Positions 22,736 to 24,656 of a stretch of 64,000 nt of DNA are shown in pieces. A model generated the notes under the pieces. It was not told the origin of the DNA, ran no database searches, and saw nothing but the letters and a program-made list of their open reading frames with translations. The DNA is taken from assembly GCA_964503715.1 (NCBI GenBank), contig CAZDAD010000002.1, forward strand, positions 5,639-69,638, in the 5' to 3' direction. This stretch comes from an uncultured Candidatus Saccharibacteria bacterium (GTDB taxonomy: Bacteria; Patescibacteriota; Saccharimonadia; Saccharimonadales; UBA4665). Made by a program: the position numbers and the translations under genes. Position 1 is the stretch's first letter; each line of letters begins with the position of its first letter.

Positions 22736-24001
22736 CTATCCTAGCGGGTGTGGTAGTTTATTGGGGAAAACAATCCCCTCCGATGCCCAAGGGTATCTCG
22801 ACGCAAGCTTATCCTCAATGTTACCAATTAGCGGCCAATTCTGATGAGCAAAAATCGATGCCATATCTGGTGACACCGCTCGGACTACTCGGATGCCTAG
22901 TTGATGACAGTCAATGGTCGACATATCTCTGTAGTATAACCCAATGCCTTTCTTGGCTAACTGTCTCATAACGGTTTCTAGTGCGGCGCTCGGAGCAACT
23001 TGCTTTCCATCTCTAGTGACAGGCAGTATGATATTTCGATTTCTGAACATCGGTAGGTTATGCCATTCCTCGGGATGAACCGTGTAATATATGGCATGGT
23101 CATCAAAGTTGTTGACATTATCGGGTGTTGCCAACGAAGATGTGTCAGCGTGTTTTTCGTATATCCCCGCAAACAATACCCCCTGGTTCCATTCGAGAAA
23201 GGCCTTGTCTAGGGCTGCACTGGCGGTCTCGCGACATGCTACGCCGAGGGAATATCGCCACCTACCCTGCTTCGGGATGCCACCAGCGACTGCAATAACT
23301 GGGAACGGGCTATATTCAGGAGTCAAATCAAATGCCCATACTTCACCGTTTAGGGTTTTTACCTGCTCAGCTTTGTCTGTGGGGACTTTGATGGACCTTG
23401 CGGGAACACTATGCATCCAAGTAATCATTAGTGCATCTCTTTCGATTAGCTCCTGGATTGCTCTTAGTAGAGCGATTATGTGCGTTGGTCCTGCCGCTAG
23501 ACCCGATGACGTAGGCGCGCCTGTCTGGAAGTCATCCCTTAGTGCGACTAGAGGGTGCGGCACCCAATATTCCTTATTGTCAGCCAACCTAAAAATATTT
23601 GTGTACAGACAAGTATCTTTGTATAAATTGCCAAAAGGAAATGATGGGTCTTCTCTCTGTTGTCTGCTAAAAAGGCACCACTTTTCGGGATCAATTCTTG
23701 AGTCTGGCTGAATAGTCGTCTTCGATTTGAGGGGTAGCTGCTTTATTGTTGCTGCATACCTTTCGATTGACTCACCTATGGCCGCAAGTTTGGCTTCATC
23801 AACCTCATACCCTACGCCACCTGATGCGCTCTCCCATGGGGAAATTATCGAGCTAGGTACACCCATATGAACAATGCCTGTCAGGTCGCTCATCGACGTT
23901 ATGGCACGCTGTGGTTCAAGCGTTATGCCGTGCCTATTATTGGCCGCTTGTAGTAGGAGGCGTTGGCTGAGGGGTATCGTCATCGTGTTGAATGTTTTCA
24001 C
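22736..24001 (-). CDS. YcaO-domain cyclodehydratase (TOMM D-protein)
   Basis: AIGESIERYAA (YcaO ExxER ATP/Mg-binding motif). The C-terminus ...KLPHPLG resembles the PxPxP tail of azoline-forming YcaOs. The 2-nt gap to the SagB-like gene supports an operon. Confidence 0.85.
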   Translation of the reverse strand: MKTFNTMTIPLSQRLLLQAANNRHGITLEPQRAITSMSDLTGIVHMGVPSSIISPWESASGGVGYEVDEAKLAAIGESIERYAATIKQLPLKSKTTIQPDSRIDPEKWCLFSRQQREDPSFPFGNLYKDTCLYTNIFRLADNKEYWVPHPLVALRDDFQTGAPTSSGLAAGPTHIIALLRAIQELIERDALMITWMHSVPARSIKVPTDKAEQVKTLNGEVWAFDLTPEYSPFPVIAVAGGIPKQGRWRYSLGVACRETASAALDKAFLEWNQGVLFAGIYEKHADTSSLATPDNVNNFDDHAIYYTVHPEEWHNLPMFRNRNIILPVTRDGKQVAPSAALETVMRQLAKKGIGLYYRDMSTIDCHQLGIRVVRAVSPDMASIFAHQNWPLIGNIEDKLASRYPWASEGIVFPNKLPHPLG

Positions 24002-24656
24002 TGGCTGTTGGTCGTATAACTAACCCAGCACCTGCGTTGTCTGATGCACCTGACTGGCCTGGCTCTGATACCTCTTCATCGACATAGTCTTTTGCGATTC
24101 GTTTGTGATACCAAACCGATATCCAGCCTACGATTATTGGTATGGATATCAAGTAGATGATTCCACCAACACCAGTAAAAACCAATGGAGCTACAAGTAA
24201 TGCTTCTCCAATTACTGCGACTGCAATAAGCCCAGTTATCTGGACTGCTCTCATTAGCGGATACTCTATCTTGACACTTGAATAAAGAAACCACAGGGTT
24301 AACAGGGGCACAATGAACACTAGTGGTATCAAATATGCTAGGCCTGCATCGCTACAGGAGTTGAGCGGCTGAGTAATGTCAGTTATGCATCCGCCAAGAG
24401 CAATGTTTATTATCCAATACCCCATATATACTAGGACTGCCACAATCGGTACGAATAGTGCAGCAAGCACCGTCAGTAGGTGGCGGTTTTTTACCTGATG
24501 GAGCTCACCTTCTTTGCCAATTTTTTGGGCCAAGAGCGAAGATGTCGATATCGTTGTTGCCAGACAACAGCAGCAACAGCAACACGAAGAACAGGTGGGC
24601 GTAGCTACAGCGCTAGAAAGTCTATCTTTATCAAACTGAGTCGGCAGCGCTTTCAT
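23937..24656 (-). CDS. four-TM membrane protein whose N-terminus is a streptolysin-S-like leader plus poly-Cys/Ser/Thr core
   Basis: Begins MKALPTQFDKDRLSSAVATPTCSSCCCCCCCLATTISTSS, then a basic linker, four hydrophobic helices and an acidic/Pro-rich tail. It starts 1 nt after the C-protein stop codon and overlaps the ycaO start by 65 nt. Confidence 0.7.
   Translation of the reverse strand: MKALPTQFDKDRLSSAVATPTCSSCCCCCCCLATTISTSSLLAQKIGKEGELHQVKNRHLLTVLAALFVPIVAVLVYMGYWIINIALGGCITDITQPLNSCSDAGLAYLIPLVFIVPLLTLWFLYSSVKIEYPLMRAVQITGLIAVAVIGEALLVAPLVFTGVGGIIYLISIPIIVGWISVWYHKRIAKDYVDEEVSEPGQSGASDNAGAGLVIRPTASENIQHDDDTPQPTPPTTSGQ
24537..24656 (-). other. putative leader (aa 1-20) plus heterocyclisable core (aa 21-40) segment of the 23937..24656 ORF
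   Basis: Eight Cys, seven of them contiguous at 24564..24593 with mixed TGT/TGC codons, and nine Ser/Thr within 20 residues. There is no in-frame stop before the TM domain. Confidence 0.55.

Follow-up and report, generated by a model that had tools for sequence, protein, structure and literature searches.

A four-gene operon on the minus strand of a 64,000-nucleotide (nt) stretch of DNA from an uncultured Candidatus Saccharibacteria bacterium (assembly GCA_964503715.1, contig CAZDAD010000002.1) combines the predicted parts of an azole synthetase with an unusual candidate substrate. The whole stretch is hereafter called the window, and coordinates refer to it unless another locus is named. Spanning 25449..22014 and free of gaps, the operon encodes, in order, a leader-binding protein (C), a membrane protein whose N-terminus resembles the precursor of a thiazole/oxazole-modified microcin (TOMM) of the streptolysin S (SLS) type (A), a YcaO cyclodehydratase (D), and an azoline dehydrogenase (B). 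To our knowledge, the azole chemistry of RiPPs (peptides made on the ribosome and modified after translation) is known almost entirely from short peptides that are cut away from their leader and exported. The features of the operon and of the A protein are as follows, where TM stands for transmembrane, AF2 for AlphaFold2, KD for Kyte-Doolittle and RRE for RiPP recognition element:

24658..25449, minus strand: C protein, 263 amino acids (aa), RRE plus E1-like leader-binding cyclodehydratase partner (TIGR03882; AF2/Foldseek)
23937..24656, minus strand: A protein, 239 aa from an ATG start, precursor-like N-terminus plus four-TM membrane domain
24594..24656, minus strand: leader-like segment of A, residues 1-21 (MKALPTQFDKDRLSSAVATPT), with conserved QFD and ATP motifs; disordered in the AF2 model
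24564..24593, minus strand: poly-heterocyclizable block of A, CSSCCCCCCC, residues 22-31; top-residue frequency 0.99
24528..24563, minus strand: uncharged Ser/Thr/Ala/Leu stretch of A, residues 32-43 (LATTISTSSLLA); 12-16 uncharged residues family-wide
24480..24527, minus strand: basic linker of A, residues 44-59 (QKIGKEGELHQVKNRH); mean K+R 4.3, net charge +2.2
24102..24479, minus strand: four-TM domain of A, with a two-Cys loop between TM1 and TM2 (KD hydropathy, AF2 helices)
23937..24101, minus strand: acidic/Pro-rich, predicted cytoplasmic tail of A, residues 186-239 plus stop; conservation 0.35, disordered
22736..24001, minus strand: D protein, YcaO cyclodehydratase (PF02624, 3.5e-42)
22014..22733, minus strand: B protein, azoline dehydrogenase dependent on flavin mononucleotide (TIGR03605, McbC match)

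A precursor-like N-terminus in frame with a membrane protein

The heterocyclizable block of A (C22-S-S-C25..C31) is encoded by mixed codons (tgt tct tcg tgt tgc tgt tgc tgc tgt tgt) and holds eight Cys, seven of them contiguous; together with T21 it forms a run of 11 contiguous Cys/Ser/Thr residues (TCSSCCCCCCC), and nine Ser/Thr fall within residues 21-40. The block and the uncharged stretch behind it amount to about 23 apolar residues before the first charge. The core has no stop codon behind it: the frame runs on into the TM domain, and the earliest in-frame ATG after the Cys run is M78, within TM1, preceded only by a TTG (L42) and a GTG (V63). An earlier reading of the letters alone (the sequence-only reading) had described exactly this arrangement, an SLS-type leader and poly-Cys core in frame with a four-TM protein between C-like and YcaO genes, and it stands in all particulars: the ORF coordinates and sequence, the composition and position of the Cys block, the count of Ser/Thr, the missing stop, and the lack of an ATG from the Cys run to TM1.

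A lipoprotein or signal peptide was considered for the N-terminus and rejected, as residues 1-21 are hydrophilic and have no h-region, Thr occupies positions -1 and -3 relative to C22, and the linker would fall outside the cell, contradicting the charge bias described below.

The flanking genes encode a complete azole synthetase

The C protein matches TIGR03882, 'TOMM precursor leader peptide-binding protein', at 43.1 bits (cutoff 36.9). Its AF2 model has a mean predicted local distance difference test (pLDDT) score of 90.7, and its best Foldseek matches, over the full length, are LynD, TruD, McbB and MccB (E from 2e-10 to 1e-7); C is therefore built like a TOMM C protein, with an RRE and an E1-like part, and two CxxC motifs lie at its residues 170 and 244. 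The D protein has ExxER ATP/Mg motifs at residues 77 and 184 and a Pro-rich C-terminus (...LPHPLG). Against TIGR03604, the SagD family, it scores 162.5 bits, under the cutoff of 219.25, and is thus related to the curated family while lying outside it; against the McrA-type model TIGR03266 it reaches 40.4 bits where the cutoff is 365. The B protein scores 87.7 bits against TIGR03605, the SagB family (cutoff 78.4), has a Lys-Tyr motif at K173-Y174, and matches McbC in the PDB by sequence (1.1e-5). Sequence searches of the PDB with C, D and B returned only the expected distant TOMM and E1 relatives. None of the three proteins has a TM-like segment, and they are therefore expected to act in the cytoplasm. 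TfuA is absent, and the partner genes are those for C and B.

The genes are tightly packed. The C stop lies 1 nt before the A start, D and B are separated by 2 nt, and A shares 47-65 nt at its 3' end with the 5' end of the YcaO gene, depending on the YcaO start (23937..24001). A comparable overlap of A and D occurs at two homologous Saccharibacteria loci (L004 and L010); the overlap may be why the ...PPQQNPP..TS.Q tail, otherwise disordered, is moderately conserved. Given this spacing, the operon has no room for another precursor, and residues 1-43 of A are its sole precursor candidate. The locus thus brings together the elements by which clusters for TOMMs, or LAPs (linear peptides that contain azol(in)es), are recognized: a YcaO protein, an RRE-bearing E1-like partner, a dehydrogenase, and an adjacent gene with a leader and a core rich in Cys, Ser and Thr.

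The fusion is conserved in a large family

Among 5.8 billion proteins searched, 77 clusters at 90% identity belong to the family, and a profile search of 1.84 billion representatives yielded 313 clusters at 50% identity, 127 of them at E<=1e-10. Full-length close homologs with the same in-frame N-terminus make up 71 of the 77 clusters. Whole-protein identity within this close family is only about 50%, and it is unevenly spread: the top-residue frequency is highest in the Cys block, followed by 0.85 in the leader, 0.64-0.74 in the TM helices and 0.35 in the tail. Judged from these alignments, the N-terminus is the part of A under the strongest purifying selection. The codons for ATPTCSSCCCCCCC vary freely at synonymous sites across 28 loci while the peptide is invariant, and selection therefore acts on the peptide and not on a DNA repeat.

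The 50%-identity clusters are nearly all 140-320 aa long, with several TM segments behind the core, and they share the N-terminal consensus [MI][KR]LVTQFD-x8-ATP[TS]C-[GSC]0-3-C6-10. Among 111 divergent representatives, Q7, F8, D9, A18, T19 and P20 are conserved at 83-98%, and T21, C22 and C25-C31 are likewise conserved positions. Of 183 proteins, 176 have a distance of exactly 14 between the Phe and the first Cys. Family-wide, the length of the heterocyclizable block ranges over 6-12 residues and is most often 10, with 8 Cys. Behind it, the interval from the core to TM1 has no residue conserved across the broad family, and hence no cleavage motif was seen there. Within the membrane domain of the same 111 representatives, conservation is highest for an intramembrane Glu (E151, 92%) and Tyr (Y168, 82%) and for P70 (77%).

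Six of the 77 clusters are not full-length, and three of these (P0065, P0067 and P0071) begin inside TM1. For P0067, which might pass for a TM-only homolog, reading upstream in the same frame recovers the full motif, and the short form reflects a gene caller's choice of start; P0065 and P0071 start at the same position in TM1 and are probably short for the same cause. Starting the A gene at an internal ATG in TM1, as gene callers sometimes do (locus L086, 1721..2452), drops leader and core, and database entries can therefore hide the motif. A free short precursor was found in none of the more than 300 clusters, and every complete family ORF at the 21 genome loci and 49 metagenome loci described below is fused. 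One candidate for such a peptide, of 35 aa at loci L039 and L049, becomes a 155-aa fusion with the conserved Glu once UGA is read as Gly (genetic code 25).

These comparisons dispose of a concern that the sequence-only reading had itself raised, that a frameshift, a missing stop or an assembly error had joined a short precursor gene to a membrane-protein gene. Nothing beyond the unusual architecture speaks for such an artefact. Independent assemblies, those of Arachnia propionica isolates included, show the same fusion in the 71 close homologs of full length and in over 100 divergent representatives, and the codons differ among loci while the protein is conserved, so that the comparative data refute this explanation and leave it a negligible probability.

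Distribution and linkage to the synthetase genes

A search of genome contigs with the family alignment gave no loci, its candidates being swamped by the poly-Cys pattern. We therefore turned to a degenerate back-translated motif, ATPTC-x-x-CCCCCCC, in 185,579 species-representative genomes. It gave 21 matches, all 21 in this gene family and all in ORFs with the TM fusion; since the motif matches this family exclusively, the matches are not due to chance. The 21 loci lie in metagenome-assembled genomes (MAGs) of Saccharibacteria and in Actinobacteria, the latter comprising two Arachnia propionica isolates, Qaidamihabitans albus, Prauserella shujinwangii, and members of the Pseudonocardiaceae, Propionibacteriaceae and Demequinaceae. 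Within the DNA fetched, homologs of C, D and B adjoin A at 20 of the 21. With a looser motif, metagenomes yielded 57 loci, of which 49 truly belong to the family, and in these 49 the TM segments lie behind the core in every complete ORF and C, D and B are adjacent wherever the contig reaches. The Cys run, whose conservation and tie to YcaO genes the sequence-only reading had left for homologs to settle, is accordingly both the best-conserved part of the protein and linked to YcaO, C and B wherever the contig suffices.

The module is found in Saccharibacteria, high-GC Actinobacteria, low-GC lineages, and bacteria of the candidate phyla radiation (CPR) that use code 25. Code 25 (UGA=Gly) is typical of Gracilibacteria and Absconditabacteria; loci L039 and L049 (Ga0066603_10004229 and Ga0209373_10011194) show long ORFs only under this code and carry the C-A-D-B module. 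The genes flanking C, A, D and B vary among loci, and no conserved protease or exporter, ABC exporters included, recurs beside the module in any lineage examined. The Arachnia propionica member WP_125228167.1 is annotated 'hypothetical protein'.

Several variants of the locus were observed. The single genome locus that departs from the linkage, L007 (4098..4564, in the Demequinaceae MAG contig CAYTLH010000050.1), has a shorter A-like orphan without C, D or B, followed by glyS; a 1-nt change within a G homopolymer shifts the frame of this gene. Locus L030 is also such an orphan, and P0075 is 156 aa long. A low-GC version (about 25-29% GC; L027 3337..4047 and a contig of GCA_016648615.1) has the order A-D-(267 aa)-B, an A protein with a C-terminal zinc ribbon (CLNC...CYNC), and a PedC-like thioredoxin-fold membrane protein upstream. 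Clusters with two A genes occur at L009/L013, L017 (Arachnia propionica), L012/L019 and L026 (10001..11439), in the orders C-A-D-A-B (Arachnia), C-A-D-B-A, and C-A-A-D-B (a JGI contig of 804 kb); the leaders and cores of such paired paralogs are alike and their membrane domains differ.

In an unrooted neighbour-joining tree of D proteins, the window falls in a clade of low- to mid-GC Saccharibacteria whose nearest relatives are high-GC Actinobacteria. The tree is compatible with transfer between Saccharibacteria and Actinobacteria, and the family may have been exchanged between Saccharibacteria and their actinobacterial hosts. The host-interaction factor on which the sequence-only reading speculated is weakened as something special to an epibiont, as the module extends to Actinobacteria that are free-living and rich in GC, to lineages low in GC and to bacteria that use code 25.

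That A is the substrate of the C/D/B azole synthetase is probable on the combined evidence: its leader-like segment carries an invariant motif whose distance from the first Cys is fixed, C bears an RRE, D and B are intact, no other precursor is present, and the linkage holds across phyla.

Topology of A and the placement of the Cys block

The TM segments of the window protein lie at about residues 60-83 (TM1), 106-127 (TM2), 138-160 (TM3) and 165-185 (TM4), with KD hydropathy of 2.0-2.7. In the AF2 model of A (pLDDT 77.9), the leader (1-21) and the tail are disordered, TM helices span residues 58-87, 105-127, 133-160 and 164-196 at pLDDT 82-96, and a beta-hairpin in the TM1-TM2 loop holds two conserved Cys. 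Lys and Arg are more numerous in the linker (mean K+R 4.3) and loop 2 (2.8) than in loop 1 (1.6) and loop 3 (0). By the positive-inside rule, this bias places the linker and the tail in the cytoplasm, in agreement with the cytoplasmic linker that the sequence-only reading had predicted.

The AF2 model of the unmodified protein also shows a single helix over residues 26-53 (C26 to Q53; pLDDT 60-93), continuous with the linker. This bears on a second explanation, in which the poly-Cys block remains unmodified within a five-TM protein, as a Cys-lined helix, a metal or redox site, or an acylation site of the kind seen in eukaryotic cysteine-string proteins, and C, D and B act on another substrate or are linked to A for other reasons. 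The block with its uncharged residues, at about 23, has the length of a TM helix, and the KD hydropathy of this segment, about 1.5, is borderline for one. Both flanks of the apolar segment, on the other hand, are net positive across 180 family members (leader +0.9, linker +2.2). The leader, too, is therefore predicted to be cytoplasmic and the segment to be interfacial or re-entrant and not a simple fifth TM helix; a simple membrane-spanning orientation is disfavoured. The operon leaves no space for another precursor on which C, D and B could act, and these genes stay linked to A across four very different lineages. A hydrophilic segment of 21 aa with an invariant QFD at a fixed distance resembles a leader recognized by an RRE and would be needless for a TM helix, and with Thr at -1 and -3 and no h-region the site is not a lipobox. 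We consider an unmodified poly-Cys segment improbable.

The membrane domain itself belongs to no family that we could name. Against Pfam, NCBIfam and PADLOC, A found no family, the window protein having no match at E<=0.01; 33 members of the alignment scanned at E<=1 gave only scattered weak matches, each in one member, the best at E 0.0017. No match was found to CPBP/Abi proteases, ABC-2 or other transporter families, and a Foldseek search of the A model against the PDB returned nothing below E=2.

Comparison with known azole systems

The closest parallels lie with SLS-like systems (SagA/SagBCD, clostridiolysin S, listeriolysin S, and the Brachyspira and Borrelia homologs), which likewise have discrete C, D and B synthetase proteins and a short leader that runs straight into 9-11 contiguous heterocyclizable residues, known as the NPH region, and then into a Ser/Thr/Ala-rich stretch. 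SLS-like toxins are defined by this region, and an NPH of 11 residues suffices for activity (PMC4513790); A has 11 contiguous heterocyclizable residues. The leader/core junctions, ...APGG^CCCCCTTCCFSIATGSG in SagA and ...LTGG^CCCCCCCCSCVNV in Bmur (PMC4513790, supplement 2), are comparable to ...ATPT-CSSCCCCCCCLATTISTSS in the window protein. The known SLS precursors, however, are free peptides of about 30-55 aa, whereas here the core runs on in frame into a four-TM protein of 150-260 aa, the A protein of the window having 239 aa. A SagE-type CPBP/CaaX protease and a SagFGHI ABC exporter were not found around the operon or conserved at homologous loci. The A leader ends in TPT and carries QFD, where SLS leaders end in GG or AG and carry FxxxB, and the D protein falls under the SagD-family cutoff. 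With three features of SLS systems wanting, we therefore regard the module as SLS-type in its working and do not file it as a member of that group.

Other systems share single aspects. Microcin B17 (McbBCD/McbA) resembles the module in enzyme logic and leader recognition, the C model being close to McbB (6gri/6gos) and B to McbC. McbA, in contrast, is a soluble peptide of 69 aa that is cleaved (TldD/E) and exported (McbEF), and its azoles are single or paired, with no contiguous run of 8-11. The thioglycine of McrA (YcaO-TfuA) offers a precedent, cited already in the sequence-only reading, for a YcaO enzyme acting on a large functional protein in place of a released peptide; that reaction is a thioamidation with TfuA and without leader, C or B, and D lies far below the McrA-model cutoff. 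In eukaryotic cysteine-string proteins, contiguous Cys are S-palmitoylated and become a membrane-associating segment on a larger protein. The likeness is one of analogy only, for S-palmitoylation is a different chemistry without YcaO and the proteins are non-homologous.

Among CPR bacteria, LAP clusters with YcaO and nitroreductase genes have been described in Microgenomates, Parcubacteria, Peregrinibacteria and Katanobacteria (Sharrar et al. 2020, PMC7298704). The example shown there differs in having a free precursor of 84 aa and a peptidase, and the study reported neither LAP clusters in Saccharibacteria nor a membrane fusion (PMC7298704). In a 2015 TOMM census, the YcaO of Propionibacterium (now Arachnia) propionicum was listed as 'Orphan', without a precursor (PMC4603692). 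The 'propionisin' class of the same census (Cox 2015) was considered as an earlier description of the family and set aside: it covers 19 Propionibacterium clusters whose precursors are short and which carry ABC transporters and CaaX proteases. Searches of the full-text literature available without subscription turned up no account of a TOMM precursor fused to a membrane protein.

The SLS parallel invites a third explanation, that A is a pro-toxin whose modified core is cut out and freed as an SLS-like cytolysin or bacteriocin, the four-TM domain serving in cis for targeting, export or immunity. This route would call for leader removal at ATPT|C, for another cut within the linker, or for both. 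The core fits the minimal cytolytic unit of SLS, for which the 11-residue NPH region is sufficient (PMC4513790), and the leader/core junction is invariant, as expected of a processing site. Some clusters hold two A genes, like multi-precursor bacteriocin clusters; the patchy distribution, suggestive of horizontal gene transfer, is typical of weapons; and the intramembrane Glu and Tyr could serve transport or self-processing. Yet a protease or exporter gene is conserved in or beside the module in no lineage examined, the stretch from core to TM1 has no conserved sequence for a universal second cut, and the TM domain matches no protease or transporter family and no PDB fold. The fusion, moreover, is kept in all of the roughly 300 family clusters, even though a toxin meant for secretion would need no more than a free peptide. 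Release of a toxin thus seems to us rather unlikely.

Surroundings of the operon

Divergent from the operon, a Fic/DOC protein gene at 25430..26641 (plus strand) matches PADLOC SoFic over its full length (E=3e-102), SoFic being a single-gene candidate for anti-phage defence. At its start, about 20 nt lie opposite the 5' end of the C gene on the other strand. Pairs of tRNA genes at 18295..18513 and 26752..27015 bracket a stretch of 8 kb that contains a GH1 glycosidase, an APH-like kinase, the C-A-D-B module and the Fic gene. The kinase (20963..21955) was considered as part of the module and rejected, as it adjoins no homologous locus. The bracketed stretch could be a variable or insertion-prone region; a composition scan (GC about 46%) gave no island signal, and a promoter scan gave counts at the level of shuffled sequence. 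By the second tRNA pair, at 27097..27930 (plus strand), lies a gene for a 277-aa protein with an N-terminal HTH_3 (Xre-type) domain and a HAD-family hydrolase domain, an unusual fusion of regulator and enzyme.

A proposed membrane-tethered polyazole

We see about an even chance, on the comparative evidence, that C-A-D-B is a self-contained module whose substrate is the N-terminus of a membrane protein and whose product is a tethered SLS-like polyazole. Tethering is favoured because the fusion is never lost, because no processing or export genes are conserved, and because no site is conserved between the core and TM1; the conserved intramembrane residues also suggest that the N-terminus and the TM domain work together, which again favours it.

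The steps would be as follows. A would insert by its four TM helices, with the leader, the Cys block and the linker staying in the cytoplasm, as the charge bias indicates. The RRE of C would then bind the leader through QFD, 14 residues ahead of the first Cys, a step suggested by homology and by the fixed spacing. From their intact catalytic motifs, D would cyclodehydrate the eight Cys, and possibly flanking Ser/Thr, to azolines, and B would oxidize these to azoles. The predicted product is a rigid, apolar, contiguous polythiazole of the streptolysin S 'NPH' type, which with about 13 uncharged residues would make up the apolar segment of about 23. Such a block would be, by estimate, roughly as long as the membrane core is thick. 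The segment would remain covalently attached and associate with the membrane or with the four-TM bundle, where the conserved Glu and Tyr lie. The membrane domain would thus be both an anchor and a partner in cis, replacing the protease, exporter and immunity genes of classical SLS clusters. Activity would be expected at a membrane, as permeabilization or in attack or defence; this step, drawn by analogy to SLS, is the weakest.

Several points weigh against this proposal. Heterocyclization of A is a prediction from gene linkage and motifs, and its biological activity one from the analogy to SLS. A housekeeping protease could release the core, in which case ATPT|C would be a cleavage site and not a recognition element. 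The Cys block and the uncharged tail behind it have the length of a TM helix and are modelled as helical, so that the protein may take a five-TM form with its N-terminus outside, which would hide the core from the cytoplasmic enzymes unless it were modified before insertion. Finally, the conserved Glu and Tyr show that the TM domain is more than an anchor.

We would also entertain, with somewhat less than even expectation, a more specific possibility: that the family is one of 'protein-level TOMMs', the first of its kind, in which integral membrane proteins bear for good 8-11 contiguous thiazole/oxazole rings, put in place by enzymes, as a non-peptidic element of their own. The rings would work together with the conserved four-TM bundle and its intramembrane Glu, for instance as a gated membrane-permeabilizing device or one for contact-dependent attack or defence.

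As read from the gene sequences, an SLS-type core, normally a tiny free precursor, is built onto a membrane protein in hundreds of related bacteria, in a family that is widespread and unannotated. Precursor mining limited to short ORFs misses this class of fused cores. If the proposal is true, a conserved family would extend azole chemistry to full-length membrane proteins with only three synthetase genes, and it would explain 'orphan' YcaO clusters such as that of P. propionicum. Arachnia belongs to the Actinobacteria, the phylum that hosts oral Saccharibacteria, and since a member is present in cultured Arachnia propionica, that species provides a tractable entry point to the family. The A family would thereby be a testable candidate for interactions between episymbiont and host at the level of the membrane.

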